Source: Candidatus Omnitrophota bacterium
GTDB taxonomy: Bacteria; Omnitrophota; Gorgyraeia; Zapsychrales; JANLHA01
Reading direction: 5' to 3'
Length of the DNA: 64,000 nucleotides
Assembly (NCBI GenBank): GCA_038222225.1
Contig: JBBRHV010000003.1
Coordinates: 10,331 to 74,330 of the forward strand
The translations under genes were made by a program, and so were the position numbers. The notes under the pieces were generated by a model. It searched no databases. It was not told the origin of the DNA and worked only from the letters and a program-made list of their open reading frames with translations. This document shows positions 2-39,177 of the stretch, in pieces. Positions within the stretch are counted from its first letter, which is position 1; each line of letters begins with the position of its first letter.

Positions 2-346
2 AAAAACTCCCCGCTCATCATCAGCGCCAAAGGAGATATTCAATCCGATCCATACTACCAAAAGGTTGACGGCCTTACGAATGCGCTTATCAATACCCCT
101 GACGTTTCCGGAGTTAAAAGCATCCCCAGCGGCCCTGCAGATCTTAAGGACGCAATGACGAGCTCATTATGGAAACGCATACTGATCTCGCAAGATCAAC
201 GTTCAACAAATATTATTATTTTCCTCGACGATGAAAAATCTTCTGAGAGCATCAAGCCAATTGAAAAGCTTATTAATGACGCCGAAAACAACGACTTCCA
301 ATTAAGTGCCTCCGGCCTCCCCTATATTGTTGAACTGATCAAATGA
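2..346 (+). CDS. Partial ORF (5' end cut by window start), hypothetical; weak resemblance to a periplasmic loop of an RND/MMPL-type exporter. Its stop lies inside the fic 5'-end duplicate.
   Basis: Open frame from position 2 to the TGA at 344-346 (the ORF track gives only the Met-initiated part 155..346). No recognisable catalytic motif. Confidence 0.3.
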   Translation, partial: KNSPLIISAKGDIQSDPYYQKVDGLTNALINTPDVSGVKSIPSGPADLKDAMTSSLWKRILISQDQRSTNIIIFLDDEKSSESIKPIEKLINDAENNDFQLSASGLPYIVELIK

Positions 347-395
347 TCCTTTCTTTCTTTTAACTTATCAAACTCCTTTAAAATAGCCGCTAATT
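325..395 (-). repeat. About 75-bp duplicate of the 5' end of the fic gene (matches 36304..36378; encodes KLAAILKEFDKLKERKDHLIS versus MKLSAILKEFNKLKETKDHLIS).
   Basis: Direct nucleotide similarity seen by eye between 325-395 and 36304-36378; the 91-aa ORF 322..597 ends with the Fic N-terminal peptide. Confidence 0.75.
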
Positions 396-557
396 TCACT
401 ATCAAAACAAGAACTTCCTCAATCTCTGCCCAGAAGTTCAGCAAGACATCATCCTCGGTGATGAAGAAAACTTTCGCGATATCCCCGAATACAAAAGCCG
501 CCCCATCCTTCAGTTGTTCGATCCAAATACTCAGCTCTCCCGATGGAAAAAGATGAC

Positions 558-873
558 GTTCATTTACTAAGTGGCAATTCTGAGAGGACTGATCCATATT
601 GGGCCATAAATGGGACCTTCGAGAGGCATGAGCTTTTTGAATTATCCACAGCTAAGGCATAAACCACAAAACAACGCCCCAATCATGCCCTAACCGTTTG
701 CAACCAACGCGGGCATCCCTCCTTCGGAGGTCGATGCTGCGTAATCATCTAAACCCTGCAAAAAACAGCAGCGTTTAGATACGCAAACCGCATCAAAGAG
801 ATCCCTGACTGCGTTTGGCAATCAGGGATCTTTTTGATTCTAAGAGTCGCTTCCGACACTGTTATACTGGTAG
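558..873 (+). repeat. Repeat R1, a diverged copy of R2/R3: CATTTACTA site, an sRNA-like structured segment (about 650-835) and a terminator hairpin, ending ...CCGACACTGTTATACTGGTAG.
   Basis: Alignable by eye to 33616..33963 and 36711..37142; shared 3' block GATCCCTGACTGCGTTTGGCAATCAGGGATCTTTTTGATTCTAAGAGTCG. Confidence 0.7.
800..835 (+). terminator. Rho-independent terminator hairpin GATCCCTGA-N13-TCAGGGATC followed by TTTTT. Present in all three R copies (also 33890-33922 and 37063-37107).
   Basis: Perfect 9-bp stem plus T-run read directly from the sequence. Confidence 0.6.
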
Positions 874-7476: not shown

Positions 7477-7536
7477 AAACTATTTTCTTTCTAATATAAC
7501 AGATATAAACATCTCCTTTAGTCCCATTGCAATTTT

Positions 7537-8325: not shown

Positions 8326-8450
8326 AAATGAAGCCTTCTAAACTCCCCGCAGCAAGCGTGCGGGACATCCAGATAGGGCTTCATTCCCCGAGCATATTAA
8401 CCTCGCAGCAAGCTGCGAGGTATTCGAGGGCAATAAAATTCCTACTGACA

Positions 8451-10172: not shown

Positions 10173-10277
10173 ACATGTCCGTTCCTTGCCTTTAAGTTTT
10201 ACAAATTTTCTTCAACTTTCCCCATTAAGAAACGTCCTGATCTATTCTTCTTACTTACAAATGATACATCCCTACCA

Positions 10278-10562: not shown

Positions 10563-10629
10563 TTATCGAAATAGACGCACCTCTCCATTCCGCGCTTCTT
10601 ATCTTCCGCACGCTTAACGGCGTTTCTCC

Positions 10630-10818
10630 TTACCGAATACGCACGCCATTCAAGTCGCCTAATATGCCGAATGATTGCAGCAACCAGATCGCCACAACAA
10701 TAACCACAACGACATTTAAAACAGACTTGATCTTGGGATCCATGGGGATATACGTATTCACTAACCATAGAATGACCCCCACAACAACCAAAGCAATAAT
10801 CATTGAAATTAATGACAT
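10630..10818 (-). CDS. Small two-TM membrane protein (62 aa).
   Basis: Strong RBS AAAGGAGGG before the ATG at 10818; MSLISMIIALVVVGVILWLV...VVVIVVAIWLL. Confidence 0.55.
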   Translation of the reverse strand: MSLISMIIALVVVGVILWLVNTYIPMDPKIKSVLNVVVVIVVAIWLLQSFGILGDLNGVRIR

Positions 10819-11157
10819 TGTCCTACCCTCCTTTTTAGAATTTATCTTAGATAATTGCCAGAGTAACACATAAAATCATGACAATCCGCCGCATTCCCTG
10901 CAAAATATATTGCCCTTATTTTTTTGGTTTAAAAAACCAGGGGCAAGCGACTTTAATGCGCCACCGCAAATGGGTCCAGCAATCCGTATTTTGCCCGTCC
11001 GGCTTCTCTTCAAAATCATTCTCTGAAGAAACCTCAGCATTGTCTTTTCTTCTCTCTTGATATTGTTTCGCCTTATTTTTCATACTTGACCTGCCCTTCA
11101 CCTTTATTTTGGGCATCGTCCCTTTTCTGGTTTTTCATCACTGCTTGCTGTTACCTG

Positions 11158-12012
11158 TCAAACCGTGATCTTTGTCTTTCTAAACCTTATTCCCAGCAAC
11201 CCTAATCCTAAAAGCGCTACGGTAGCCGGTTCCGGAACGACTGCTGAGGAGACATCCGGCACAACTTTACCGTTTGCATCAAATACAAGCCCGCCGCTTA
11301 AACCATGGCTGGCATTGCAAATGGCAGAAATATCGTTTGTATCCATCGTCACTGCGCCCTTTAGCGCAAGGGCTCTGCCGCACAAAATATCTGCATCGGT
11401 AGTCAGCGTGATGCTCTGATCCGCAAGAATATTGCCTATAAATGAAGTCCCTGTGCCGAGAGTCGCAGAAGTGCCAACCTGCCAGAACAGACCATCATTC
11501 AAGCCTGGATTGATCACCGACACCGATGAAGAGGACGCCGTTGTAAGTGTGCTCCCGATCTGAAAAGCCCAGAACGCATTATCAAGACCCTGAGCATCTA
11601 GCGTAAGTGGCCCCGTCAACTGAGCCGACGAGTTAAAATGATAAACGCCTGAAGTAAGCGTGAGTCCGCCAAGATCCTGACCAGTCAGGTCACTAGTGAA
11701 CGGCATATTAAAAAGGCCAGTCCACGCTGTGATGGCATCATTCCGAGCCTGAAGAGACACCCCATCGGGTCCGTGTATCGTTCCAGCAACAGTCCCCGGC
11801 CCTCCGGGAACATCAAAACCAACAATCGCGCTCCCTGGGGAAACACCCAAATCTCCAGTAACGGTACTCGAGCCAGTATTGGCTACCGTCGAACTACCTA
11901 AAACTCCGAAACTCTCCCCCAAACCTAATATCGAAGCAAGCCCTGTGGTAGGACTATGGAAAAAAATGATTACTGCCACGACTGCCGAAATGATTAAATA
12001 TTTGCCTCTCAT
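11158..12012 (-). CDS. PEP-CTERM sorting-domain protein with an ice-binding-like (DUF3494-type) Gly/Thr-rich beta domain.
   Basis: Signal peptide; C-terminal VPEPATVALLGLGLLGIRFRK (PEP motif + TM + basic tail). Confidence 0.8.
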   Translation of the reverse strand: MRGKYLIISAVVAVIIFFHSPTTGLASILGLGESFGVLGSSTVANTGSSTVTGDLGVSPGSAIVGFDVPGGPGTVAGTIHGPDGVSLQARNDAITAWTGLFNMPFTSDLTGQDLGGLTLTSGVYHFNSSAQLTGPLTLDAQGLDNAFWAFQIGSTLTTASSSSVSVINPGLNDGLFWQVGTSATLGTGTSFIGNILADQSITLTTDADILCGRALALKGAVTMDTNDISAICNASHGLSGGLVFDANGKVVPDVSSAVVPEPATVALLGLGLLGIRFRKTKITV

Positions 12013-12084
12013 TTGTGCCCCATCGCGTTATTGTGTTATAAAACTCTATTGTATTATTAAACTCACTACTCCCTATTCATGTCC

Positions 12085-12747
12085 TTATTGACTCATGGTA
12101 GTTGTTGTTGTGGTAGTCGTTGTTGTGCCCATAGTAGTTGGTGCATACAATGTAATATCCCGCGCTTGTTTGTTCCCCTCCACCATCACGTAATCAACCT
12201 TTACCACATCACCGGGCTTTAATACTAATTCGACCGGCTGACTGCTTGGACTTTTCATCACAACGATCGTCTGGGGGTCAAAAATGAAATCAGAAGTCCT
12301 GCGTATTTCATCTTGCCCCATCCTTACCCTTTCTTCAACGACCAGCGTTCCGGCCTGGGTATCGATTGCCTTAAGCTCGCCAAAAGCCTGCTGGAACTCA
12401 GACACGGGCAAGGGTTCAACAATAATTTTTGGTACAACCGAATCCCCTTGACCATCGAGCACTTCAATGGTGACATTTTGACCTGCACGCAAGTCCGCAA
12501 CATTGAGAAACTTCTCATCCTTAGGGTCAGTGACCCTCGTATCATTCTGGCTAATTCGATACGCTGTTGTTTGCGTACCCTTCGGCACGTCTTGATTTAA
12601 CTCTAACTTGCCCGATTGAACATCGACCCATCCAATCTCTCCTGATACACGGTGCGTATCCCTATTCTCCGCGCTGCATACAGAAATGCCCGCAAGCAGC
12701 ACAAAAACCGCAACTGCGACCACGTGTTTAAAATTGTTTGCATTCAT
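12085..12747 (-). CDS. Secreted protein, paralog A (MNANNF... signal peptide, SGEIxxxDxxxGxLxL domain, poly-Thr tail).
   Basis: RBS AAAGGAG; signal peptide; shares N-terminal architecture with 12929..13459. Confidence 0.6.
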   Translation of the reverse strand: MNANNFKHVVAVAVFVLLAGISVCSAENRDTHRVSGEIGWVDVQSGKLELNQDVPKGTQTTAYRISQNDTRVTDPKDEKFLNVADLRAGQNVTIEVLDGQGDSVVPKIIVEPLPVSEFQQAFGELKAIDTQAGTLVVEERVRMGQDEIRRTSDFIFDPQTIVVMKSPSSQPVELVLKPGDVVKVDYVMVEGNKQARDITLYAPTTMGTTTTTTTTTTMSQ

Positions 12748-12928
12748 AGATTGTACTCCTTTTTCATTTTGATTTTCAACGCTATGCTTTCATGAAGCCC
12801 CGCGGACTAAAGTCCGCGGTTCCATTTTCTGCGAGATCCCGCGGGGCGGAATCTCGACCGAAACGCCTCCCATCCCCCATCTAAAGATAGGGGTGTTTCG
12901 GCGTCGGGATAAAAAAAACTGTTGTTTT

Positions 12929-25632: not shown

Positions 25633-25757
25633 ATGGCAATTCCTTTGTAATAATGCCCGGCCATGACAGAACCGGATTAATAGGACTTTCTATTCAGTCG
25701 AATCTCTCGGTTAGCGACTTACAATATAAAGGTGTCGCCTTTATTGACCTTTATTGA

Positions 25758-25866
25758 TTAAGGCAACCTCTAATAATTCCATTTACAGTCAAAATGAATG
25801 GCTCTTTATCGACGATAGCGGAATCAGTAAATGACTCAAAAATAGCATTTTTAGAGGTTGCCTTAA
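25758..25866. repeat. 109-bp element bounded by a 16-bp inverted repeat (TTAAGGCAACCTCTAA ... TTAGAGGTTGCCTTAA), orientation A. Inverton or MITE-like.
   Basis: Same element at 26245..26353 with identical direct flanks (CACCTTTATTGA ... GTATTGTGTC) but the inner 77 bp reverse-complemented. Confidence 0.75.
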
Positions 25867-25883
25867 GTATTGTGTCCCCAGAA

Positions 25884-26153
25884 TTACAGGGATCCTCTTC
25901 TCTTTGGTTTCTTCTCTACACTTTTCTTAGGGGCCATTTTGCCCCGATTACGAATAATCAAACCGTCTAAAAATCGTCTTAACAGCTGATCGCCGCAAGG
26001 CCTATAATTTTCCTGATCGTCTTTACGAAAAATAGCGGAGAGCTCCGAAGGAGAAACTTCTAATTCAGCGAGTTTAAGGATTTCAATAATATCCGTGTCT
26101 CTTAAATGCAAAGCGATACGAAGCTTTTTCATAATGTCGTTATTGTTAATCAT
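25884..26153 (-). CDS. DUF1456 (YehS-like) protein.
   Basis: NDIMKKLRIALHLRDTDIIEILKLAELEVS...QLLRRFLDGLIIRNRG pattern. Confidence 0.7.
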   Translation of the reverse strand: MINNNDIMKKLRIALHLRDTDIIEILKLAELEVSPSELSAIFRKDDQENYRPCGDQLLRRFLDGLIIRNRGKMAPKKSVEKKPKRRGSL

Positions 26154-26244
26154 CCTTGATCCCTCCTGTGATCCTAACAATTAAGCCATTTCTATCCAAG
26201 CCAATAATAAAGGTGTCAATCACCTTTCTTGTCACCTTTATTGA

Positions 26245-26353
26245 TTAAGGCAACCTCTAAAAATGCTATTTTTGGGTCATTTACTGATTCCGTTATCGTC
26301 GATAAAGAGTCATTCATTTTGACTGTAAATGGAATTATTAGAGGTAGCCTTAA
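26245..26353. repeat. Second copy of the IR-bounded 109-bp element, orientation B (interior inverted relative to copy 1).
   Basis: See 25758..25866. Confidence 0.75.
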
Positions 26354-26381
26354 GTATTGTGTCTCCAGAGTTTTTTTATTT

Positions 26382-28011: not shown

Positions 28012-29046
28012 CTATTTATATATACCCGCCAAACCTTTATCCAACAATTCCTGATTCACATAAACCCCCTCCTCCGCAATGCGGGCGAGGTCATCCGTTC
28101 CCTCCAGCACAAACAGATCAGTCAGATAACGGCCGTACTTTTCCGGGTCCTTATGGGTCTTAACCACCACGCGCTCAACGCCTTTGAGGCGGCCGGTCAA
28201 ATACTCTTTGGCCTTAACCCCGGCTAAAGTGGAAAGCTCCGGGGCATCGATCGCCCGCAGGCGCAGGCGCTGGGTTGTTAACATACCGTAGCCCATATCA
28301 ATGCGCGCCACCAAAGTATCGCCGTCCACCACTCGATCGATCCAGGCGCCGTAAGTATACAGCACCTCACTGGGACCTTTATAGGTTTCCAGCCGGTAAC
28401 CTGCCCCCTCTTTGATCGAGCACACAAGTTTCGAATTGATAAACTTGATATATCCCGCCTCGGCACTGTCAATGGCCACATGAAAACCCAGATCAAGCCT
28501 TGGTGAAAACGGCACGCCGTTTAAATCCGTGCCTTTGCGGATCGCATATAGATAGGGAATGCCGCGCGCACAGGTCAGCTGTCCGCCTTTGAGCTCAACG
28601 CGATGAAGCGCTTCGACGTTTTTGTCGCGAACCAATTCGGTCACCTGCAGGCTCGAAACTCCCTCTTTAATCATCCGGCGCTCAAGCTTGAGCCGTTCTT
28701 TACTATCGGCCACACTGATCAGATGGCGGTAATGCGTCCAGGTCAAGGGCGTGTTGCCCGGACACTGCGGATACATGCGGTAGAACTGAACCATCTTCTG
28801 AAGGACGCGCTCATTCAATTTAAGCTCCTCCCCCAATTTTTGGTACAGCGAAACCCTGTAAGCGGAGCGGTAATCCTTGTCGAGAAAAGATTCGGCGATC
28901 GAGCAGCCGATCTTCCAGTAGGTTTGAACACGGGCGAGGTTTAAAAGATGCTGAGCTTCTTTGAGCCCGGTATCCATGTCCCGGCGGATGGATGTCAGAA
29001 GTTTGGTGAAACGTTTTTCAACCACAACGTTGGCGGGAACGGTCAT
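28012..29046 (-). CDS. DUF1016_N (YhcG N-terminal) domain fused to a staphylococcal-nuclease-like (SNase/thermonuclease) domain; putative nuclease.
   Basis: LLNLARVQTYWKIGCSIAE (DUF1016_N-like) and VVDGDTLVARIDMG...LRLRAIDAPE (SNase DGDT...R..IDAPE). Confidence 0.6.
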   Translation of the reverse strand: MTVPANVVVEKRFTKLLTSIRRDMDTGLKEAQHLLNLARVQTYWKIGCSIAESFLDKDYRSAYRVSLYQKLGEELKLNERVLQKMVQFYRMYPQCPGNTPLTWTHYRHLISVADSKERLKLERRMIKEGVSSLQVTELVRDKNVEALHRVELKGGQLTCARGIPYLYAIRKGTDLNGVPFSPRLDLGFHVAIDSAEAGYIKFINSKLVCSIKEGAGYRLETYKGPSEVLYTYGAWIDRVVDGDTLVARIDMGYGMLTTQRLRLRAIDAPELSTLAGVKAKEYLTGRLKGVERVVVKTHKDPEKYGRYLTDLFVLEGTDDLARIAEEGVYVNQELLDKGLAGIYK

Positions 29047-29057
29047 GGAAATATTAT

Positions 29058-29140
29058 AGAGCGTAGAGGGTAGAGCGTAAAGCGTAGAGGGAAAAAAAGA
29101 CACTAAGACACTAAGACACTCAGGCACTAAGACACTGAAA
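29058..29140. repeat. Two short tandem repeat blocks: (AGCGTAGAGGG)-like x3 and (GACACTAA) x about 5.
   Basis: Read directly from the sequence upstream of the nuclease gene start. Confidence 0.7.
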
Positions 29141-29182
29141 AACGGAAAAACAAAAAACCGCCCTTTGGGGTGGCTTTTTATT

Positions 29183-29195
29183 TGGTAGCCCTGGG
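29183..29195 (-). repeat. Short tRNA-Glu 3'-end-like remnant (TGGTAGCCC..).
   Basis: 9-13 nt identity to the reverse complement of the tRNA-Glu 3' end. Confidence 0.35.
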
Positions 29196-29317
29196 CTTCG
29201 CTAATGCTCAGCCACTTCCTCGGACATTAAGTTTTTCAAAAAACCATTCTTCTTCAAAAATCAAAAACCCCTGCAAAACTCTACAGAGGCTAATAAAAAA
29301 ATTAAATGTACTAATCA

Positions 29318-29596
29318 CTAAATATTCTTCAGAAACCTTTTAATATCGTCGTGATTTCCCGCAAATATAAATTCCACTAAATCCCCTTGCCACCTAAACA
29401 AGATCCTAGCTTTTATGCCCTTGCGCACTTCCCAAAAGTCACCTCTTAAACGCTTTAAGCCAATTCCTTTATGAATACTTTGATCTTGGGACAGCATATC
29501 AATTAGCTGAATTGCAACTTCTTTTATTGCTGCCTTTTCCTTCTCGGAAAAGGATTTCATTGATCGCTTAAATGCCGGCTTAAATTCAAATTTCAT
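29318..29596 (-). CDS. RelE/ParE-family type II toxin.
   Basis: 92 aa; KGIGLKRLRGDFWEVRKGIKARILFRWQGDLVEFIFAGNHDD pattern; 4-bp overlap with the upstream antitoxin. Confidence 0.7.
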   Translation of the reverse strand: MKFEFKPAFKRSMKSFSEKEKAAIKEVAIQLIDMLSQDQSIHKGIGLKRLRGDFWEVRKGIKARILFRWQGDLVEFIFAGNHDDIKRFLKNI

Positions 29597-29856
29597 AAGT
29601 CTTTAAGATGTTCTTTGGCTACTTCTGCACTGGAAATGCTCTTGCCTTTTTCAGCGGCTAGCTTCTCGATCTTAGCCCATTCTTGTTCCGTGTATGGAGA
29701 TTCAGCCGTGACTTTGCAAGGAACCAAAATCACACCATCTTTTGTAATACCAAAACCCACCGCCGAACCTTCTTTTAAATTCAAAAGCTTTCGAATACGA
29801 TTGGGGATCGTGATCTGTCCTTTGGTGGTCATTTTTGCTACTTCTGTGATTGTCAT
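29593..29856 (-). CDS. AbrB/MazE/SpoVT-type antitoxin.
   Basis: MTTKGQITIPNRIRKLLNLKEGSAV swapped-hairpin motif; RBS AAAGGAG. Confidence 0.7.
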   Translation of the reverse strand: MTITEVAKMTTKGQITIPNRIRKLLNLKEGSAVGFGITKDGVILVPCKVTAESPYTEQEWAKIEKLAAEKGKSISSAEVAKEHLKDL

Positions 29857-30182
29857 TTGAAGGCTCCTTTCATTTTTCCTTACATCCTTACTTAAAGGAT
29901 ACCCTACAAGTAACCAACCGTCAACCCTTTTTAAATCCTGAAAGATCTCACAACACTCTTTCAAACATCCTCTCTAATCACAATCAGAAAGCTGCTTAAC
30001 GCAGAAATTTCATCAATATCAACATGCCACTCATTTGTGTGGATGTCAAGATTCTTCTGTTTCCTTTTATTTTCACCACCAAAACCATCACCAAAATCTC
30101 TAAAAAACATAACGCACCTTGATTAACATCGATATGGCTTGAAAAAATGAAGAAAGGGAAGGCAAAAGCCTTCCCTTTTATC

Positions 30183-30213
30183 TGGTAGCCCCAACTAGAT
30201 TTGAACTAACAAC
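30183..30213 (-). repeat. att-like remnant: copy of the 3' about 30 nt of tRNA-Glu (27/31 identical to the reverse complement of 37323-37353).
   Basis: tggtagccccaactagatttgaactaacaac versus tggtagccccaaccggatttgaaccggtgtt. Confidence 0.65.
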
Positions 30214-30449
30214 ACTTTTAGGTCAAAACTATCGAAAAAACATCAAAATTGTGCAGTTTTTTGCCGACTTTCATCATGCTGATAATTCCATCCCTAAATC
30301 CACTACTAAAAACTTCTATCAACGAAATCCCAAATTCAGAGAACCCTTTATCGACTGGCACGATCCATTCCAGTCGATACCATTAAACATTTCAATCAAA
30401 GACCACAAAATGAAGCAGCTTCCTTGAAGCTCCTTTCCCCATCTCCTTA

Positions 30450-31856
30450 TCAAAACTTCTTTCGCTTCTTAAGATGCTTTACCATCTGAACCATATCTTC
30501 CTTATACATAGACTTCAATTGCTCCCACTTTTCATGAGCAAGATCATAGTCGGGATAAAACATCAAGGCCTTTTCAAAACATTTTTCAGCCTTGCGTTTT
30601 TGAAGCAGAAAAACATAACAAACACCCATATTATGCCAAACCACGTGATTATCATCCCATAGCTTTGAATAATGCTGATAAAATTCCAGGGCCTTTTGAT
30701 ATTGCCCTTCTTTCATGCATCGGGCCGCATCATCAAAAAGTTTTTCAACCTTCTGCTTATCATCTGTGTAAATTCTGTTTATCTGAAAGTCATATCCGAA
30801 TTCTTCCTGGGGATTGCCCATCGCTTTGCGTTCCTCCATAATAACTTCTCTGGGCGTCTTTCCGTTAAGTTCTTCAAGAGGAGCAACAAACCATTCATCG
30901 CTCCACCGCTGAATCTTTTCAACAAACTCTTCCTGTTCTTTGGCAGACATTATCTTCATTGGATACAAAAACGTTTTCTCCATTGCGTCCGTACAAGCGC
31001 TCACCAATGTTTTTTCCAAAGGGCCTTTTTCCATACCCTGATGAAGTTCTCCCACAAACTGATTCCAGACATCGTTAAAAGCCTCGCCGAATTCCTCAAC
31101 ACTGACCCACTCCGGAAGCGTCATGCCGCTCAGCACACTTTGCATTATATCCGCCAGATGCTTTTTATCCTTGATCGCCATTCTCATTTCAAGAAAGATA
31201 TCCTCAGCATCGTCATCCGACAAGCCGCCTTCTTTACAAAGCAGAATGAATTTTTTTTCAACAGATAGCTGTTCCGGAACACGCTCTGGAAACAACGCTT
31301 TATACATCTCAAATGCATCCTGTCGATCATGCGATTCAGACGAGTTTTTTAAAAACAAGCCGATGATATCGTACTCCTGTTTCGGAAAAAACAGGCCATC
31401 CGATGCCATTATAAAATAGTTATCAAACGGCAATAATCTTCCGATAATATAATCGCCTTTCCCGGCAGCTCTGCTTCCTCTGGTGTCAAAAATATGATAT
31501 TCCTCCAATGAAATCACATCTTCGCACACAAACTCTTTACCGATCTTTACTGCCTTAACTTTATAAATCCCGAAGCGGTCCTGCCCAATCCGGGAATATA
31601 TTTCATAAAGCTCCCGGGAGATTTTGCCCCTCTCCTCATCCAGGAAAACATCAAAAAGCCTTTTATGATATTTCTCCAATTGGTGATCAAAAATAAACCA
31701 GTCGAAAAACAGCCGGCCGATATTCTGATCGGTAAATGACAAACGGATAAAATCTTTCTGCCGTTCAAACACCTCTTTTTCTATCGCGGAATGACATCGA
31801 ACAAAATCATTGATCGCATCATACATTTTTTTAATAAGGTCTTTATATTCTTTCAT
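30450..31856 (-). CDS. Hypothetical protein with C-terminal TPR repeats; N-terminal about 330 aa unrecognised.
   Basis: C-terminal KALEFYQHYSKL...GVCYVFLLQKRKAEKCFEKALMFYPDYDLAHEKWEQL TPR-like. Confidence 0.5.
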   Translation of the reverse strand: MKEYKDLIKKMYDAINDFVRCHSAIEKEVFERQKDFIRLSFTDQNIGRLFFDWFIFDHQLEKYHKRLFDVFLDEERGKISRELYEIYSRIGQDRFGIYKVKAVKIGKEFVCEDVISLEEYHIFDTRGSRAAGKGDYIIGRLLPFDNYFIMASDGLFFPKQEYDIIGLFLKNSSESHDRQDAFEMYKALFPERVPEQLSVEKKFILLCKEGGLSDDDAEDIFLEMRMAIKDKKHLADIMQSVLSGMTLPEWVSVEEFGEAFNDVWNQFVGELHQGMEKGPLEKTLVSACTDAMEKTFLYPMKIMSAKEQEEFVEKIQRWSDEWFVAPLEELNGKTPREVIMEERKAMGNPQEEFGYDFQINRIYTDDKQKVEKLFDDAARCMKEGQYQKALEFYQHYSKLWDDNHVVWHNMGVCYVFLLQKRKAEKCFEKALMFYPDYDLAHEKWEQLKSMYKEDMVQMVKHLKKRKKF

Positions 31857-32083
31857 TGTGTCAATTTTTGTAGAAACCCCTGATCAATAAATCATTAATA
31901 AATCGTGACCATGTTTTGCTGAAGTTTTCTGCAAGTATAAATTCCACCAAGCCGTCAAAGTTTTTTTCTTTTAGATGCCATAAAATTATTCTGTTTCATA
32001 AAAAATTTTGAATGCCAATTTAAAATTTTTATACAAATAATAGCCTTTTGGAAATGCATAAGTCTATGGTATTCTTACAGTAT

Positions 32084-32263
32084 GAAAGAAACATCCCTCT
32101 TTGAATCAAATCCTTATTTAAAAAATCAGGCTGTACGAAACCGGATGTTTTTAACTGCCGTGAATACCTCGACTGCTATTGAAGGTGTTCATGTCGATAT
32201 CTCATCTCCAAAAAAGCGTTCACGCCAAAACACATCCATATCTAGGAAGATGCTGAAGTAGCC
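32084..32263 (+). pseudogene. Fic-family N-terminal fragment (inhibitory-helix region TSTAIEGVHVDIS), 59 aa.
   Basis: Hand translation MKETSLFESNPYLKNQAVRNRMFLTAVNTSTAIEGVHVDISSPKK... parallels the N-terminus of the intact Fic at 35362..36378. Confidence 0.55.
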
Positions 32264-32490
32264 TTCTTGATTGTCCTTCTGATAACACTCAAAAACATCC
32301 TCTGCATGGGAACATAGTCTCTTCTAAGACCAGATTGTACCGCTGCGATATATTCGGCCTTTTTTCTGCCTTGAATACCGCCAAAATCCAAGGCCGGCAG
32401 CCCTGCCTGAAGAGCCATGATGATAGAAAGAAGTCGCGCAATTCGGCCGTTACCTTCCCGAAACGGATGGATCAGAGACCAATAAAAATA
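32236..32490 (-). pseudogene. Fic-family C-terminal fragment starting at the catalytic motif (YFYWSLIHPFREGNGRIARLL...). No start codon; in frame directly after the HEPN stop codon.
   Basis: HPFxEGNGR Fic motif read by hand. Convergent with the N-terminal fragment on the opposite strand. Confidence 0.7.
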
Positions 32491-32895
32491 TCAAGATAGC
32501 TTGTTCTTCACAAATTCAAAAAACCGCTCACAATCTTTAAACATCTTCTCTGCCTCGTTTTTGCAAACAAGGCGCTCCTCATACTCAGCCATATTTTTCA
32601 TCCGCAAAATCCTCACGATACGGTTGGCGTTTGTCGTGAACTCTTCGGTGTTTTTGATCATTTTAAACAGGACGACCGCCTGATTATGGTCTTCGCCGGC
32701 GCTTCTTTTCCCCAAAAAATAAACGCACATGGCGTCACAGGCGGATATCGTGCAGTGTATCGCATTAATAGCAACAGCATTCCACTGTTGTCCTTGCAAG
32801 GCTTTCTGCGATGCATTAAAACACTCTTGTGCTTTCTGCATAAAATTCGTATACGCTGCGCGCTGAACATCCCGTGTTTTCGGCTTTGCTATCAT
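32491..32895 (-). CDS. HEPN-domain protein (toxin partner of MNT).
   Basis: R-x4-6-H motif (KRSAGEDH); genetic pairing with the MNT gene. Confidence 0.7.
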   Translation of the reverse strand: MIAKPKTRDVQRAAYTNFMQKAQECFNASQKALQGQQWNAVAINAIHCTISACDAMCVYFLGKRSAGEDHNQAVVLFKMIKNTEEFTTNANRIVRILRMKNMAEYEERLVCKNEAEKMFKDCERFFEFVKNKLS

Positions 32896-32907
32896 AACAT
32901 CATCCTC

Positions 32908-33504
32908 CTAGGGGAATAATTGTATTCCTTTTTCGATTTCCTCCAAAAGCTTCAGATCCTTCTTCTGCTGAAACTGTTTTTCCGTCAGAACATACGCAGC
33001 CAATCTGTTGCCAAATTTTTCTAGGCATGTAATAGACAGTCCCTCAAGCGATTCCTCCAGAGACTTTAAACTTTCCTTATTTTGGGTCAAAACAAAAAGA
33101 TCAATATCGCTGTCTGTTTTTTCATCATGACTGGAAACAGATCCGAACAAAACGACTTTAATCAGGCTTTTCTTGGGTAGTCTGCTTAAAATGGTCGTTT
33201 TTAAGGCCACAATCGGCTGTGGCTGCGTGTCAACGATCCCTTTGACAGTATTCAACACATCATAAGCGTAACTCTGAGGATTGACTTTCCAGACATGGGC
33301 CCGCCCTACTCTTTCATAGGAAACAAAATGCCACTGCTCCAGATAGCGCATAACCCGGTTAACCGTCATGTGCGAAATTCCCACCAGAGACGAAATCTCT
33401 CTCTCACTCATGGCGGACTCATGGTTAATCAAAAACCGGACAACCTTGAGTTTCGCCTCAGTATCGATCAATTGAAAAAACGAATCATGAAACTTCATAC
33501 GCAT
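32908..33504 (-). CDS. Minimal nucleotidyltransferase (MNT) with N-terminal winged HTH (antitoxin partner of HEPN).
   Basis: LFGSVSSHDEKTDSDIDLFVL (GS...DxD) motif; wHTH at the N-terminus. Confidence 0.75.
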   Translation of the reverse strand: MRMKFHDSFFQLIDTEAKLKVVRFLINHESAMSEREISSLVGISHMTVNRVMRYLEQWHFVSYERVGRAHVWKVNPQSYAYDVLNTVKGIVDTQPQPIVALKTTILSRLPKKSLIKVVLFGSVSSHDEKTDSDIDLFVLTQNKESLKSLEESLEGLSITCLEKFGNRLAAYVLTEKQFQQKKDLKLLEEIEKGIQLFP

Positions 33505-33506
33505 TC

Positions 33507-33552
33507 CTTTGTAACTTTCATGTTACAAATGTAACATAAATGTTACATAAAA
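33507..33552. promoter_or_regulatory. Operator-like 18-bp perfect palindrome ATGTTACAAATGTAACAT plus an extra TGTTACAT half-site, immediately upstream of the MNT start.
   Basis: Palindrome read directly; the downstream gene encodes a wHTH protein. The TGTAACAT half-site also occurs at about 36645. Confidence 0.5.
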
Positions 33553-33615
33553 TCAATGATTTTATATCGAAATATCAACGGCACCATACGACGCAAAAAC
33601 TCTTTAAACTTCATC

Positions 33616-33963
33616 TTCATTTACTAGAGAGTGGTTGCCCAATTATGGCTAAATCCTAGTAAATGGCTTTTTGGCCATTTTCCCAAAATGCCGATTGCGA
33701 CTATTTTGATTTATTGTCATTTACTAGGGGCCATTTACTAAGTGCCACTTCTGATAGAAATGGCTAGTATCAGACCCAATTTGGCTGTCGCGAGTACTAT
33801 CAATTTTTCCAAATGTAAGCATCCAGCGCCGAAACTACAAAACACCATCCCACTTGCGCCCTAACCCTTTGACACGTCAAGACATGAACGATCCCTGACT
33901 GCGTTTGGCAATCAGGGATCTTTGTGATTCTGAGAGTCGTTTCCGACACTGTTATACTGGTAG
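33616..33963 (+). repeat. Repeat R2 (CATTTACTAG sites x4 in direct/inverted orientation, terminator hairpin, ends ...TTATACTGGTAG); lacks the central sRNA-like segment.
   Basis: Alignable to R3 36711..37142 and R1 558..873. Confidence 0.75.
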
Positions 33964-33999
33964 TGTACGCTGTCCGAAGACACACATGACTCTCACCAT

Positions 34000-35263
34000 T
34001 GATCTTCCCCACTTTAGTGGACAGTTTGTTTAGTTAGGACGGCTCGATTTTCAAACTCAAAAGGACTTAAATAATTGAGCGTTGAATGACTCCGTCTACG
34101 ATTATAATACATCTCTACATATTCAAAGATTTTTCTTCTTGCTTCTTCCCTAGTTCGAAATCGGTACTTGTGAACAAGCTCGACTTTTAACGTGTGGAAG
34201 AAGCTCTCAGCGACGGCATTATCCCAGCAGTCACCTTTTCGGCTCATACTGCCGATAAGCTTATGTTCAGCCAATATCGCCTTGAAATCATTCCCTGCGT
34301 ACTGACTGCCGCGATCTGAGTGACAGATCAATCCTTTATCCGGATTCCGCCTTAGGATCGCCTGTTGCATAGCCCTGGTGGTTAGTGTCGCGGCAATGGT
34401 TTTATCCATGGCCAAACCAACAATCCCCCGCGAAAAAAGATCCAGCACCATCGCCACATATAACCACCCTTGAGAAGTCCAAATATACGTTATATCGAAT
34501 ACCCAGACGGCATTGGGCTTCTCGACCACAAAGTTCCGATTCAAAACATTCGGCCATACCGGATAATCATGCTTCGAGTTCGTCGTTAACCGAAACTTAC
34601 GCTTCTGGACAGCGACGATTCTGGCTTCTCGCATGACCTTCGCCACACGGTTCTCCGAACAACGGATATGTTTGACGTTGTTCAACTGGTCCCAGATTCG
34701 TGGACTGCCGTAATTCTCTTTGTTCTCCACAAACACACATTTTATCTCAATGAGCAATGCTTCATTCTTGATGCGGCCCTGGCTCTTGGGCCGATTTTTG
34801 TATGCGTAATACCCGCTCCTCGACACTTCCAAGGCCCGGCACATCTTCCCGAGCGGAAAGACCAAACGGTTATCGTCTATGAATCCGAACCGTTCTCGGT
34901 CGATTTTGAAAATATGCCGACTGCTTTTTTTAGGATGTCACGCTCCATTTCAACATCACGTAACTGACGCCGTAACGCCGCCAACTCTGTCAAATGACCC
35001 TTGCCGGGAAAAGCCTTCTCTCCCTCATCGCCAAACTGCTTCTTCCAGAGATACAGCCGCCCCGGGTCGATTCCAAGGCTCCTGGCCACCTCTGCGGCCT
35101 TGTGCCCGCCCTCTGTGACCATCTTGACCGCTGACATCTTGAACTCCCGGTCAAACCGCTTCTTCTTCCCGTTTTCTCCTGCCATTGGACACCTCCCGTT
35201 TTTGAGCCGGCTATCATATTAAAACCAACTCTTCGTTGTGTCCACTTTTTCGGGGGAAGATCA
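34000..35263 (-). mobile_element. IS3-family insertion sequence (orfA 34877..35185, orfB 34014..about 34930, A7 -1 frameshift site near 34920; terminal IRs TGATCTTCCCC...).
   Basis: OrfA HTH protein; OrfB rve/DDE integrase core; slippery CTAAAAAAAGC; about 25-bp imperfect terminal inverted repeats at 34000 and 35263. Confidence 0.85.
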
Positions 35264-35361
35264 CTTTATCAACTTGAATAATGCATTCAAGTCGTTACAA
35301 CCGGATTTTTATCCATTCAAATCTTGAAATTTCGCACTCTTTCTTTGGATTTTCATACCAT

Positions 35362-36378
35362 TTATTGCTTTTCCACATATTCAGCCATATCCTGCACCCG
35401 AACATGCCAAGTCTTCCCTCTTTTGACACCCTTTAATTTTCCCCGATTAATTAAATTGCGAAGATAATCTGAAGAGTAATTATAGATTCTTGCCAAATCA
35501 CTCAGCGGCAACTCAGCCTCTTTATTAGTGTGACGAATATCTACTTCCTTAAGGCGTCCTACGGCATCATCCAACCGTCCTATAACAATTTCTTTTATCT
35601 TATCAAAATCCTCCAGACGAATGCATTCATCTACATCATTAACATCAAACTTTTTCCCTTGCTCTATTTTGCGATGAATTAATTCAAAAACATCATCTGC
35701 CTTCTCTAGGGCATCATAATAATACTCACGATCCTTTTTAGAAATACCTTTGATCGCTATATTCATCAACCCACATCCAATGAGAATATACGATAATAAA
35801 ATCCTCCCAGTGCGCCCATTCCCATCAGAAAAAGGATGGATCGATTCAAACCAAACATGTGCTATCGCCGTTAGTTCAATATGATTATATTTCTCTTTTT
35901 TTAGATGATAATTAATCCATTTAACCAATAATTCCGTCGCTGGACGCACATAAAATTCACTAATAGGCGTAAACGTAGATTCTGTAACCTCTGCCCTGCC
36001 CTTACGAAATCCCCCTAAATCTCCGATATAAAATCCCATTTCCTTTTCATAACGCATCAAAAGAGTGTGGATCTGTTTAACATCAGACATACGCACTGAA
36101 AATTCTTCTTCCTTGTGTTGATTTGCCGCATATTCATACATCGCAGATGCTGCTTCAAAATAACCTAGAATAGATGCCGCCTTATGCTTATCCGTTCTTT
36201 TATTATTTTCAAGAATATCAATCAAATCTTTACGATTAGCAAATACTCCTTCAATCGCAATGGAGTTGCGAATCTCATCCTTAAACAAAGAATACCATTC
36301 GGCATTAGAAACGCTGATCAAATGATCCTTTGTTTCTTTTAACTTGTTGAACTCTTTTAAAATAGCTGATAATTTCAT
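35362..36378 (-). CDS. fic: Fic-family protein (intact; HPFSDGNGRTGR motif) with a C-terminal HTH-like region.
   Basis: Fic motif, N-terminal SIAIEGV inhibitory-helix-like motif, 338 aa. Confidence 0.85.
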   Translation of the reverse strand: MKLSAILKEFNKLKETKDHLISVSNAEWYSLFKDEIRNSIAIEGVFANRKDLIDILENNKRTDKHKAASILGYFEAASAMYEYAANQHKEEEFSVRMSDVKQIHTLLMRYEKEMGFYIGDLGGFRKGRAEVTESTFTPISEFYVRPATELLVKWINYHLKKEKYNHIELTAIAHVWFESIHPFSDGNGRTGRILLSYILIGCGLMNIAIKGISKKDREYYYDALEKADDVFELIHRKIEQGKKFDVNDVDECIRLEDFDKIKEIVIGRLDDAVGRLKEVDIRHTNKEAELPLSDLARIYNYSSDYLRNLINRGKLKGVKRGKTWHVRVQDMAEYVEKQ

Positions 36379-36445
36379 GACATATTCCTAAGTAGTGTTA
36401 AATATCAAAATCTATCGAACCACATGTGCTTATTAAAACCAACAA

Positions 36446-36602
36446 GACTTGCGAACCTTTTCTTATGGTTCGATAATAATATATCATATTTATGTGTGAA
36501 ATAAAGCTATTTCTAGTATTTTACCGAACCTTCCGAACCACATCCAATTCTTATTTTTACCCTCAAACTATCGAACCTTTGCGCATGGTTCGGTAAAAGC
36601 CT
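36446..36602. promoter_or_regulatory. Two palindromic CGAACC-N9-10-GGTTCG sites (36446-36470, 36577-36602) plus CGAACC half-sites upstream of fic; putative operators.
   Basis: gcgaaccttttcttatggttcga and atcgaacctttgcgcatggttcgg read directly. Confidence 0.45.
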
Positions 36603-36710
36603 CAAATGTCCGTCTTTTTCTCAGACCCACTAGCTTTCCAGATATGGATATGTAACATAAAAATTGTACAAAACAGCACTTTCATTTTACAAAACACAAA
36701 AACCCCACTA

Positions 36711-37142
36711 TTCATTTACTAGAGAATTTTCGCCATATTCAGGCACAATCCTAGTAAATGAAATTCTGGCTATTCCACCCCAATAGGCATTTTCAAACAT
36801 TTTGATAAATAAGCATTTACTAGGAGCCATTTACTAAAGGCCGATTTTGATAGAAATGGCTAGTATCAGACCCAATTTGGCTGCCGCGAGTACTATCAAT
36901 TTTTCCAAACGTGATCATCCTGCGCCGAAACTACAAAACATCATCCCCATTACGCCCTAACCATTTGCAACGTCAACACAGGCATTACCCCCTTCGGGGG
37001 TTGATGCTGCGCAATCATCTAAACTCTGCAAAAAAACACCAGAGTTTAGATACGCAAACCGCATCAAAAATCCCTGACCGCGTTTGGCAATCAGGGATCT
37101 TTTTGATTCTAAGAGTCGTTTCCGACACTATTATACTGGTAG
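36711..37142 (+). repeat. Repeat R3 (full-length: CATTTACTAG site cluster + sRNA-like structured segment about 36930-37095 + terminator), directly abutting a tRNA-Glu 3'-end copy at 37137.
   Basis: See R1/R2; ends with ...ttatactggtagccccaa. Confidence 0.75.
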
Positions 37143-37148
37143 CCCCAA
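37137..37148 (-). repeat. 12-nt copy of the tRNA-Glu 3' terminus (TGGGGCTACCA+).
   Basis: tggtagccccaa identical to 37323-37334. Confidence 0.4.
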
Positions 37149-37269
37149 GCCGTGGCCCTCTGGCCACTGGCACTTCCTCGCCAGGCTCGGTCGGCCCAGC
37201 CGGGGACGGCCGGCACTTCCTCGGACATTACGTCCTCGGTCGCCGGATTGTATTTTCGCTTCAAAGGGC

Positions 37270-37322
37270 TGAAGCTCTCAAAATAAATCGGGCACGACCT
37301 TTCGGGTCGCGCCCGCTTATTT
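37270..37322. terminator. GC-rich hairpin (CGGGCACGACC-TTTC-GGGTCGCGCCCG) flanked by T/A runs; bidirectional terminator just 3' of tRNA-Glu.
   Basis: Read from the sequence. Confidence 0.5.
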
Positions 37323-37399
37323 TGGTAGCCCCAACCGGATTTGAACCGGTGTTTGATGGCTGAGAACCATCCGTCCTGACCAGGCTAGACGATGGGGCC
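37323..37399 (-). tRNA. tRNA-Glu (anticodon CUC), CCA encoded.
   Basis: Hand-folded cloverleaf: acceptor GGCCCCA/TGGGGCT, anticodon arm GATGG-TTCTCAG-CCATC, T-arm ACCGG-TTCAAAT-CCGGT, D-region TCGTCTAG...AGGAC as in bacterial tRNA-Glu. Confidence 0.85.
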
Positions 37400-37599
37400 A
37401 AATCTCACAACATTTATATTAACAAGCGGGATGAAACATTTCCCGCCAAATCTCTCTTTTCTTCGCCCAATGGTTTCGCTAGTACTCAACCACTCCCTCG
37501 GACATTTTGTCCTCGGTCGCCGGATTTTCACCGGGTTTCGCTCCCTTCGGAGCGCGGAATGGTTTCTCTCCCACTCAAAACGGAAGAAACCATTGGATG

Positions 37600-37703
37600 G
37601 CTGAGCAATGAGGCTTACCTCAAAATCTTTTAGCCAAAGCCTCATTCCCGGCCAACTTGATTGGCCGGCACCATCCGTCCTGACCAGGCTAGACGATGGG
37701 GCC
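37600..37703 (-). repeat. Partial copy of the tRNA-Glu 5' half (positions 1 to about 33, 37668..37703), then a 64-nt hairpin-rich insertion, then the anticodon/3'-stem sequence CTCAGCCATCC. Not a complete tRNA.
   Basis: ccatccgtcctgaccaggctagacgatggggcc identical to 37367-37399; downstream sequence lacks a proper T-arm and acceptor 3' strand. Confidence 0.6.
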
Positions 37704-37986
37704 AAAATTTTTAAACCCATAAAATTGAAATACTTGGAAATACATAGAAAGACGGGGAAATAAAAAAGCTTCCCCCCCCACCGTCCATGGCGCATCCTTC
37801 AATTTCAAGCGCATATCACTCGTATTTCAATCCACTTCTATCATTTTCCACTAGGGATAAATCTTACCACATTTCCCTTATTGGTCAATAAAAATATCCC
37901 GCTGCATTTTTAAGGAAAAGCACCTCCCATAAGACTATTTTTATGATATATTCTTTATAATTAGGAAAATTATCGAGGACCTCAGC

Positions 37987-39177
37987 ATGGCTTTATCCGT
38001 AGGGATCGGTTTTAACAAAGAAAAAAATACAAATCTGGCCGCCGCGGCAGCGATCGAACAGGCCAAACGCAATATCCATGTCGGCCGGATCGACCTCATT
38101 CTGGTTCTGGCAACGCCTCATTATTCCCCTCAAAATATCATTACGGAGATCGGAGACCAGCTGGATTCCCCCCGGGTCATCGGCTGCTCAACGGAAGGGA
38201 TCATCCTTGATAACACGATCCACCGGCGCGGCATTGCCATTGCCCTTTTTCATTCCAATGAGATGAAGTTTGTGACCGGCAGCACTCAACATCTGAACCT
38301 GCAAAACGCCAATCAAGCCGCCGAATCCCTGGTCCAATCCTGCAAATCCGAATACGGACAGAGCGAACGCCAGCTTTTCTTTATTCTGACGGAAGGCGCA
38401 CCAAATAGCATTCCGGATTTTCAGCACCATCTGCGGCGGAACCTTCAGGAAGACCCGGACATCCCCATTATCGGCGCCTGCTGCACAAGCATCCTCGCGC
38501 CCGAGAGCTCCTTTCTTTTTTATAATAACGAAACCATCAAAAAATCCGCGGCCGTCTTTATGGTCGGCGGAAAAGTCAAGGTCAAAATGGCCTGCCGCCA
38601 GGGCTGGCATCCGATCGGACGCCCCCGCTTTATCGATAAAAGTAGCGGCCATATCATTCATGTGATTGACGGACGGCCGGCCATTGAACTCTATCAGACC
38701 TTTTTTCCCGATCAATGCCGTTTTTTAAAAAATCCGTCTTCGTCACTCAACATCTACTATCCGCTGGGTATTGCCAGCGGGAAACGCGGGGTCTTCTTTC
38801 TCCGAAATGTTGTAGATGTTCTTGACGACGGCAGTATCGTCTGTAATGATAATGTCGAGGCTGGCTCACAAATCCACATCATGCTCGGCAACCGGGATTC
38901 CTGCCTGCAGGTCACGAGGAACGCCATCAACGAACTGAAAGGCTTCTTTTCGGATCAGCCTTCGGGCGCGGCGCTCATGATCGCCTCAGAACGGCATGAC
39001 CGGATCCTGGGACGGGCCTTTGAGCGGGAGTTGAACTATTTCAAACGAACGATCGGCGAAGCGATCCCTATCATCGGGTTCGTCAGCCACGGGGAGATCT
39101 TTGATGTGGGAGAACCGCATCAGCAATCTCCGAACTCAAAACAAAACAACAGCTTAATGGTCATCGGTATAAAATAA
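37987..39177 (+). CDS. FIST-domain sensory protein (FIST_N + FIST_C).
   Basis: GRIDLILVLATPHY...PRVIGCSTEGII and C-terminal IIGFVSHGEI patterns. Confidence 0.7.
   Translation: MALSVGIGFNKEKNTNLAAAAAIEQAKRNIHVGRIDLILVLATPHYSPQNIITEIGDQLDSPRVIGCSTEGIILDNTIHRRGIAIALFHSNEMKFVTGSTQHLNLQNANQAAESLVQSCKSEYGQSERQLFFILTEGAPNSIPDFQHHLRRNLQEDPDIPIIGACCTSILAPESSFLFYNNETIKKSAAVFMVGGKVKVKMACRQGWHPIGRPRFIDKSSGHIIHVIDGRPAIELYQTFFPDQCRFLKNPSSSLNIYYPLGIASGKRGVFFLRNVVDVLDDGSIVCNDNVEAGSQIHIMLGNRDSCLQVTRNAINELKGFFSDQPSGAALMIASERHDRILGRAFERELNYFKRTIGEAIPIIGFVSHGEIFDVGEPHQQSPNSKQNNSLMVIGIK

Follow-up and report, generated by a model that had tools for sequence, protein, structure and literature searches.

We describe a series of partial copies of a transfer RNA (tRNA) gene, tRNA-Glu(CUC), and the small groups of genes that lie between them, in a 64-kb stretch of a metagenome-assembled contig from the phylum Omnitrophota (source sample SRR19962012); we refer to this whole stretch as the window. 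ARAGORN identified two tRNA genes in the window, tRNA-Glu (as anticodon CTC) among them, and placed the latter where an earlier note on this DNA, made from the sequence alone, had put it. An exact search with the 3' half of the gene returned an identical copy only in metagenome-assembled genomes (MAGs) of the Candidatus Omnitrophota type. On one side of the tRNA, which we call the core side, lie genes for a FIST protein, a histidine kinase and a response regulator-GGDEF protein. From position 1 up to the tRNA, the G+C content (GC) is approximately 0.42, and past the tRNA it is 0.505; individual segments of the array range from 0.38 to 0.44, against 0.505 in the core.

Read in the orientation of the tRNA (the minus strand), the order is as follows: a pseudo-tRNA; the intact tRNA; a short insert, X1; remnant S1 with a module, a Fic gene and an IS3-family element; S2 with a module, MNT and HEPN genes and a TPR gene; S3 with a terminator, AbrB and RelE genes and a U motif; S4 with a terminator, a nuclease gene and approximately 28 kb of further sequence; and S5 with a module and a truncated Fic gene. 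Here S1 to S5 are remnants of the tRNA 3' end, and the module and the U motif are repeats described below. Coordinates are given in Table 1. The array extends beyond what the earlier note had described, to at least position 335, and the three module copies, the U motif, junctions S2 and S5 and the IS3 transposase are additions to it.

Table 1. Features of the array, listed in the orientation of the tRNA, and recombinase genes at related loci
Feature	Position	Strand	Basis
Pseudo-tRNA-Glu, 5' side of intact tRNA	37461..37706	minus	Repeat family D12; sequence comparison
tRNA-Glu(CUC), encoded CCA, intact; putative recombination target	37323..37399	minus	ARAGORN; Rfam tRNA 56.8 bits
X1, 174-nt non-coding insert between tRNA and S1, GC 0.62	37149..37322	minus	Sequence, GC content
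S1, 12-nt tRNA 3'-end copy, TGGTAGCCCCAA (TTGGGGCTACCA on tRNA strand), joined to module copy 3	37137..37148	minus	Sequence match
Module copy 3, non-coding, upstream of Fic	36711..37142	minus	Repeat families D1, D2, D10, D11, D13, D17; alignment
Fic/DOC + HTH_17 protein, 338 aa, cargo of first islet	35362..36378	minus	Pfam Fic 8e-17, HTH_17 5e-8; PADLOC SoFic 7e-32
IS3-family insertion sequence	34000..35263	minus	Pfam HTH_Tnp_1, rve, rve_2, rve_3
S2, CTGGTAG junction closing module copy 2	33957-33963	minus	Repeat alignment
Module copy 2, upstream of MNT-HEPN, ends in S2	33616..33963	minus	Alignment
MNT-type nucleotidyltransferase, N-terminal HTH	32908-33504	minus	Pfam Polbeta/NTP_transf_2; PADLOC PDC-M05A
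HEPN protein, pairs with MNT	32491-32895	minus	Pfam HEPN; PADLOC PDC-M05A
TPR-repeat protein, 468 aa	30450..31856	minus	Pfam TPR_1/TPR_2
S3, 31-nt T-arm + acceptor 3'-end copy, 27/31 nt, own terminator 30153-30178	30183..30213	minus	Sequence match
AbrB/MazE-type antitoxin	29593-29856	minus	Pfam MazE_antitoxin 1e-9, passes cut-off
RelE/YafQ-like putative toxin	29318-29596	minus	YafQ_toxin 18.7 bits, below cut-off of 30
U-motif copy X3 adjoining S4	29192-29250	minus	Repeat families D3, D19
S4, TTTGGTAGCCC, 9-nt match (11 nt with flank)	29181-29191	minus	Strand, terminator, U motif context
DUF1016_N + SNase nuclease, first gene past S4	28012..29127	minus	Pfam; PADLOC PDC-S02 4e-19
S5, CTGGTAG junction closing module copy 1	867-873	minus	Repeat alignment
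Module copy 1 + first 21 Fic codons (335-398), ends in S5	335..873	minus	Repeat families D2, D8, D11, D13, D17; alignment
Large serine recombinase gene, L006	2729-4231	minus	
Large serine recombinase gene, L008	4993-6492	plus	
Large serine recombinase gene, L024	10001-11500	plus	
Large serine recombinase gene, L025	8443-9942	plus	

The tRNA fragments and the repeats joined to them

On the plus strand, the 3' end of tRNA-Glu reads TGGTAGCCCCAACCGGATTTGAACCGG. The window contains the 11-mer TGGTAGCCCCA at three positions and no others (30183, 37137 and 37323), all on one strand; shuffling gives an expectation of 0.49 matches, and three or more were reached in one of 100 shuffles. The copies of the 3' terminus that the earlier note had listed, at 37137 (12 nt), 30183 (27 of 31 nt) and 29183, were all found, and all lie on the strand of the tRNA. 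For S3, the chance expectation is about 1e-7 per window by a binomial estimate, and the differences in its T-stem are still base-paired (GTTAG/CTAGT versus ACCGG/CCGGT). S1 has counterparts at the same position in two relatives, as a 12-nt TGGGGCTACCAG remnant in the related locus L011 and a 21-nt remnant in L016 (labels L002 to L025 denote Omnitrophota or metagenome loci with tRNA-Glu context). S4 taken alone is within chance, with about 0.5 nine-mers expected per window; it lies on the correct strand, a terminator hairpin (approximately 29152-29176) follows it as at the other copies, and a U motif precedes it as at 37137. The caution that the short matches could be chance holds for the 9 nt at 29183 by themselves. 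A permissive Rfam search of 28900-38000 returned the tRNA and weak terminator-like matches only, with no second tRNA and no known RNA family for the remnants, the U motif or the module. Between the start of the nuclease gene and the S4 terminator, the interval 29060-29143 contains five overlapping copies of an 8-nt unit, AGACACTA, preceded by a repeat rich in GTAGAG/GCGTA.

The module is a non-coding sequence of approximately 350-540 nt whose three copies in the window are 78-91% identical. Every copy ends on the same bases (...GTTATACTGGTAG, at 873, 33963 and 37142), and in the orientation of the tRNA the module starts with CAGTATAAYAG and a terminator hairpin. Copy 3 is 88% identical to module_b of L011, and the junction that closes copy 2 is the counterpart of the junction of TGGGGCTACCAG with module_b there. 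In the segment containing copy 1, the module-Fic islet occurs a third time, cut short and fused with an unrelated open reading frame (ORF) fragment on the plus strand (2-343). This fragment stops at 343, having run into the Fic remnant, and belongs to no Pfam family; at this far end of the array, the stretch 2-398 marks the site of a deletion or fusion. Our guess that the fragment encodes an RND-type transporter was dropped, as Pfam gave it no support. No match to the module terminator GCGTTTGGCAATCAGGGATC was found by exact search of metagenome and viral contigs, and a search with the junction pattern CTACCAGTATAAYAGKGTCG matched one small contig, L016.

Close to the downstream gene, the module also has a number of CATTTACTAG motifs, some in each orientation. 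Together with CTAGTAAATG they are found in each copy, upstream of MNT-HEPN and Fic (36711-36860, 33616-33762 and 561-591, and 7196-7330 in L011), and separate CGAACC...GGTTCG inverted repeats lie directly upstream of Fic at 36400-36600. Both are probably operator sites for the HTH (helix-turn-helix) domains of the cargo.

The remnants at 37137 and 29183 are each preceded by another repeated sequence, the U motif (AATCCGGCGACCGAGGAC..AATGTCCGAGGAAGTG...), which is also found within the duplication on the 5' side of the tRNA. X1 contains a terminator hairpin (approximately 37280-37316), a U motif at 37214-37249 and a partial second copy of it. L011 has no X1, its tRNA abutting the module directly; in L016 an analogous insert of 165 nt lies on the 3' side of the tRNA, followed by the 21-nt remnant and a module.

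On the 5' side, a copy of the 5' half of the tRNA had been reported. The copy is exact over 37 nt (37670..37706 equals 37366..37402, including three upstream nucleotides), but it is not a mere half: it opens a whole, interrupted pseudo-tRNA. From 37703 on the minus strand, we read the exact 5' half, a 63-nt insert, CTCAGCCATC (the anticodon and 3' stem strand), a 58-nt insert, CCGGTGAAAATCCGG (a match of 13 of 15 nt to the T-arm), a 49-nt insert that bears the U motif, and TTGGGCG, a degenerate acceptor strand; the intact tRNA starts approximately 60 nt further downstream. The inserts lie in the anticodon loop (63 nt), the variable region (58 nt) and the junction of T-stem and acceptor (49 nt), and the first two contain two stable hairpins each. 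The chance of the co-linear 10-mer and 13/15 matches is estimated at roughly 5e-5. The insertion points (anticodon loop, T-stem start and acceptor 3'-strand start) match the three boundaries where the other remnants start. This insertion is not present in the relatives; for example, the gap between FIST and the tRNA is approximately 255 nt in L004 versus 587 nt here. A functional intron-containing tRNA was considered and rejected: ARAGORN calls none in the region, either whole or with the three inserts removed by hand, so the copy is a pseudogene. The minimum free energy of the 307-nt region is -118.5 kcal/mol.

The simplest account of the 5' duplication would be an element whose attachment site (attP) carried tRNA-like sequence including a functional 5' half. 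A crossover in the anticodon loop would have joined the displaced native 5' half to the degenerate 3' half of the element, which would explain both the exact 5' half and the decayed remainder. The alternative to such an attP crossover would be a decayed tandem copy of the gene.

Related loci and the cargo genes

The gene order beside the tRNA recurs in relatives: FIST-kinase synteny was also found at tRNA-Glu in L004, L005, L008, L011, L024 and L025. An Omnitrophota assembly represented by L011, L012 and L013 has a Fic homologue at the same tRNA. The order in L011 is the FIST-kinase operon, tRNA-Glu (5102-5178) running into module_a, Fic, TGGGGCTACCAG with module_b, MNT-HEPN, and a T-arm/acceptor fragment with its own terminator; that is, its array is the one in the window minus X1, the IS3 element, the TPR gene, the AbrB/RelE pair and the 5' insert. 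No counterpart of the TPR gene lies between HEPN and the remnant in L011, no IS3 element is present at the L011 locus, and the fetched L011 sequence contains no DNA counterpart of the AbrB/RelE pair and no gene called after its counterpart of S3. Homology between the window and L011 passes through this orthologous copy of S3 and then stops just after it; S3 is the outer limit of the island block common to the two.

In comparisons of the window with L011, a diverged relative, cassette proteins mostly, though not always, exceed the flanking core proteins in similarity: Fic, HEPN and MNT are 85%, 82% and 66% identical, against 34% for FIST, 53% for the kinase, 73% for the response regulator and 61% for a further core protein. 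Module DNA is 78-88% identical to L011, whereas the alignable stretches of the core are 64-75% identical by blastn, and the FIST gene gave no blastn match to L011. Because the homology stops after S3, and because cassette proteins and module DNA are more alike than the core, we regard the block as mobile DNA rather than old chromosome; on sequence comparison, the excess of similarity argues for lateral acquisition.

Other loci carry different inserts at the same gene. In L009, a 1.5-kb PilZ islet lies between the tRNA and a copy of its 3' end that is exact over approximately 24 nt, and in L025 a 2.15-kb cassette with TylF and RNase H genes, and no integrase, lies between the tRNA and a displaced 46-nt 3' half. 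A B12-radical-SAM gene directly follows the tRNA in L002 and L005, and more distant relatives have unrelated genes in that position. Unrelated inserts at one tRNA in several genomes support serial site-specific integration followed by decay. On the 5' side, L016 contains a small GIY-YIG nuclease gene (300-790) flanked by an 18-nt repeat, with one mismatch, of the tRNA start and upstream bases, an insertion that parallels the 5'-side insertion in the window. Searches further afield returned less: no species-representative genome gave a confirmed locus related to that of the core-side FIST protein, FIST, PLD and GtrA had exact matches only in short Logan contigs from the same sample, and the contexts of three distant Fic homologues (P0007, P0025 and P0006) are not at tRNA-Glu and are uninformative on an integrase.

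The cargo of the array is enriched in toxin and defence families according to Pfam and PADLOC, in agreement with the earlier note, which had seen it as dominated by toxin-antitoxin (TA) and nuclease genes. MNT and HEPN (32491..33504) are predicted from their domains to form a toxin-antitoxin-like pair. The AbrB/MazE and RelE/YafQ-like genes, a candidate type II toxin-antitoxin pair, overlap by 4 nt and form a two-gene cassette between S3 and S4. Their position between the remnants at 29183 and 30183 and the antitoxin assignment stand as the note had them; the match of the toxin is weak (Table 1).

IS3-family elements are characterized by an orfA/orfB pair, TG...CA terminal inverted repeats and a 3-4-bp target duplication. 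In the probable member found here, orfA spans 34877-35185 and orfB spans 34014-34865, and the inverted repeats are TGATCTTCCCC.../...GGGGAAGATCA. Its flanks, CAT versus CTT, show no target-site duplication, which is consistent with later rearrangement. Sequence by the end of the element and downstream of Fic (35258-35334) is homologous to L011 8463-8540, downstream of HEPN, and a second, overlapping copy lies near 30341-30381. This likeness suggests either that cassettes recombined at their 3' ends or that they share a terminator element.

Repeats are also found in the long segment past S4. Two repeats of approximately 40-46 nt, with 87-92% identity (25747-25885 and 26234-26372, 487 nt apart), flank a DUF1456 gene (25884-26180). 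A 30-nt motif, AAAAAAGGACAATTGTACCAGGGTATAACT, has four intergenic copies (17069, 17771, 20746 and 22443; 73-100% identity) that surround sigma-factor, response-regulator and GGDEF genes, and may be a shared promoter or operator.

Origin of the array

We consider it likely that small integrative elements, now decayed and without integrases, accreted in tandem over the DNA between tRNA-Glu(CUC) and at least position 335, through repeated site-specific recombination into the tRNA gene. The comparisons show the remnants and repeats, the array shared with a relative, the break in homology at S3 and the absence of an integrase. The earlier note had read a footprint of serial integration and decay from the fragments alone; the same array in L011, the stop at S3 and the other inserts at this tRNA bear it out.

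Its statement that no integrase is present also survived a wider search. Pfam domains of tyrosine and serine recombinases (Phage_integrase, Resolvase, Recombinase) were found neither in ORFs of at least 70 aa in 1-37800 nor in ten of the gap ORFs of at least 50 aa, and tblastn with the recombinase of relatives against the window matched only the tRNA overlap. Relatives do have such genes. A large serine recombinase of approximately 500 aa (Resolvase + Recombinase + Zn_ribbon_recom) abuts the 3' end of tRNA-Glu in L006, L008 and L024, and another abuts the displaced tRNA 3' half in L025. In each case, the gene closes with 13-14 codons (LVAPTGFEPVFDG) that read the tRNA in antisense, over the stretch between the tRNA 3' end and the anticodon loop. 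The family comprises 850 proteins at E below 1e-40, and among the 120 closest homologues 86 have G[FVLI]EP at the C-terminus, which is how a tRNA T-arm reads in antisense; variants of this tail imply several tRNA species. These proteins may represent a clade of tRNA-targeting serine integrases, as their gene ends suggest. According to Islander (PMC4383910, 2014), serine integrases were not known to target tRNA genes, and no later report of such integrases was found in the literature searched, which is not proof of novelty. A search of viral contigs with the tRNA 3'-end pattern and the recombinase of the relatives gave no match. The window cassettes share no DNA similarity with the recombinase elements; with neither a recombinase remnant nor common DNA, the link between the two is circumstantial.

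From established island biology, each incoming element would have recombined with a defined sub-site of the tRNA and replaced the part that it displaced, and the older tRNA end and earlier elements would have been pushed away from the gene, leaving a ladder of remnants on the tRNA strand. Recombination at the start of the acceptor 3' strand would account for the 12-nt remnants (S1, S2 and probably S4 and S5), at the T-stem for S3, and in the anticodon loop for the 5'-side duplication. The first of these sub-sites matches a 3'-end class of attP that Williams reportedly described in 2002. The module would be the tRNA-proximal arm and the U motif the distal arm of the elements; such conserved arms imply that at least some units belong to one element family with one recombinase type, and the three remnant classes imply more than one recombinase specificity. 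The recombinase genes would have been lost, or would act from elsewhere in the genome. The leftover cargo (SoFic-like Fic, MNT-HEPN, AbrB/RelE-like and DUF1016-SNase) would be addiction and defence genes that favour retention. Later events would include the IS3 insertion with adjacent rearrangement, insertion of the TPR gene, and the mini-insertions X1 and on the 5' side. What happened in which order, which recombinase acted and whether any cassette can still move are matters of inference from this arrangement.

Several points weigh against accretion by repeated integration. Of the tRNA end, just 7 nt are left in S2 and in S5 and 9-11 nt in S4, and these were accepted on context, not length. 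With no recombinase in the window, no agent can be named for the integrations. The 28 kb from 874 to 29182 hold ordinary signalling and envelope genes; their island status is unproven, no absence having been demonstrated in a close relative, and tblastx of 1-37400 against the flanks of all relatives found no synteny for them. Homologous recombination or gene conversion could account for part of the likeness among module copies. In L011, module order relative to the genes is swapped. The earlier note had proposed a comparison with relatives for empty sites: L011 lacks X1, IS3, TPR, AbrB/RelE and the 5' insert, but no truly empty site was found in any close relative compared. Lastly, an independent assembly confirms only some junctions (820-12814 and 37677 onward), and from the same reads. 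One Logan contig from this sample matches 820-12814 at 100% identity and ends inside module copy 1, and a second is 100% identical from 37677 onward and ends inside the 5'-half repeat; because they stop there, we conclude that these repeats break short-read assemblies.

A bolder reading, which we hold to be doubtful, is that tRNA-Glu of Omnitrophota is served by a large clade of approximately 500-aa serine recombinases with a specificity for tRNA genes, their C-terminal codons being antisense to the tRNA 3' half, and that the [module-gene-U] units of the window are cassettes shuffled by these enzymes or by an equivalent one acting in trans. If true, this would be an integron-like platform for defence and toxin cassettes built on a tRNA gene. 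That such a platform is active, with the tRNA 3' end as primary attachment site and the cassettes moved by a recombinase in trans (a large serine recombinase being the candidate), seems to us improbable. It would fit the conserved arms on both sides of remnants, the X1-like unit that is proximal in the window and distal in L011 with modules swapped, and the greater likeness of cassettes than of core between the two. The integrase-less cassette of L025 next to a recombinase-bearing element, and the size of the recombinase family with its tRNA-antisense terminal peptide, point the same way. The window, however, lacks both a recombinase and cassette DNA similar to the recombinase elements, its remnants are of three lengths and classes with no uniform site, several of them are degenerate (7-9 nt), which suggests decay over activity, and no excision junctions were observed.

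Another possible origin is ordinary homologous recombination or segmental duplication of the tRNA flank, by unequal crossing-over or mediated by IS3, with no site-specific integration and with the remnants as the ends of duplicates. The modules, at 350-540 nt and 78-91% identity, have the length that RecA-mediated exchange would need, their places are swapped compared with L011, the IS3 element without a target duplication indicates rearrangement, and the downstream flank of Fic resembles that of HEPN in L011. We nevertheless think this unlikely: all three module copies end on one base inside the tRNA 3' end, the remnants lie at three tRNA sub-sites that resemble attP sites (anticodon-centred and T-stem-region in Islander, PMC4383910), homology to L011 ends exactly at a tRNA fragment, and several other genomes carry unrelated inserts, with repeats of tRNA fragments, at this tRNA. 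Either chance similarity or a faulty contig, chimeric or wrongly joined across the conserved tRNA or across repeats, is a highly improbable explanation, for although the 7-9-nt matches are each within chance and this is a MAG contig with a GC shift at the tRNA and with Logan contigs that break at repeats, the 31-nt and 37-nt copies are far beyond chance, the order FIST-tRNA-module-Fic-module-MNT-HEPN recurs in assemblies of other samples (L011, L012, L013 and L016), and a Logan contig crosses the S5 junction at 100% identity.

Significance and comparison with known systems

Stepwise integration at tRNA-Glu, if correct, shows how Omnitrophota gather accessory genes for toxins and defence; almost no mobile-element biology has been described for this uncultured phylum. 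The locus, tRNA-Glu(CUC) by the FIST-histidine kinase operon, is a conserved attachment locus that can be used to find islands in other MAGs, and it explains assembly breaks there. The interest rests mainly on three things: the phylum, a ladder of remnants that is unusually dense, lacks integrases and flanks the tRNA on either side, and the serine recombinases associated with tRNAs. If confirmed, serine recombinases on tRNA genes with a tRNA-encoded C-terminus would matter more than the array, both for integrase biology and for genome-engineering tools.

Elements of the phiC31/Bxb1/TnpX type are mobilized by large serine recombinases, and the proteins of L006, L008, L024 and L025 are like theirs in lying at the edge of an element, at the same tRNA. 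They differ in that the gene in the relatives ends inside the tRNA, read antisense, and the window has no such protein. Integron arrays resemble the window in their short cassettes, promoter-less or with a single operon, many of them TA, stacked by one primary site with recombination-site-like repeats between them. Unlike integrons, the window has no IntI, attI or attC and no tyrosine recombinase, its inter-cassette repeats are tRNA 3' fragments with module and U rather than imperfect palindromes of the attC type, and its cassettes bring their own upstream regulatory module.

Cis-mobilizable elements (CIMEs) and tandem accretion of remnants of integrative and conjugative or mobilizable elements (ICE/IME; Pavlovic 2004 and Bellanger 2011, as reviewed in PMC5704250) have lost integration and transfer genes and kept their attachment sites, much as five remnant junctions bound integrase-less units here. 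The window differs in having no visible conjugation or relaxase genes and no helper ICE, and also in that the arms (module and U) are conserved among several cassettes and insertions lie on both sides of the tRNA.

The general model for islands in tRNA genes is that of Islander (PMC4383910), with CIMEs and accretion covered in PMC5704250. Islander required one integrase, a tyrosine recombinase, per island and tabulated attP positions, including anticodon-centred and T-stem-region ones; 159 of its 3919 islands have 5' fragments, and only 4 tandems of three or more occur among the 3919. The array departs from these islands in that no integrase was found in any unit, in its tiny units (0.17-3.7 kb between remnants S1 to S4), in having at least five remnants in one array, and in its Omnitrophota host. 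It resembles them in most other respects: an intact tRNA with same-orientation fragments of it bounding the elements (37137, 30183 and 29183, with the 5' copy at 37670), fragments that start at the T-stem region and the anticodon loop, two of the tabulated attP positions, the rarer 5'-fragment case, tandem order, foreign base composition, accessory cargo, and homology to a relative (L011) that ends at the tRNA fragment S3. The array itself is a genomic-island hot-spot of a familiar type, here in a poorly known phylum.

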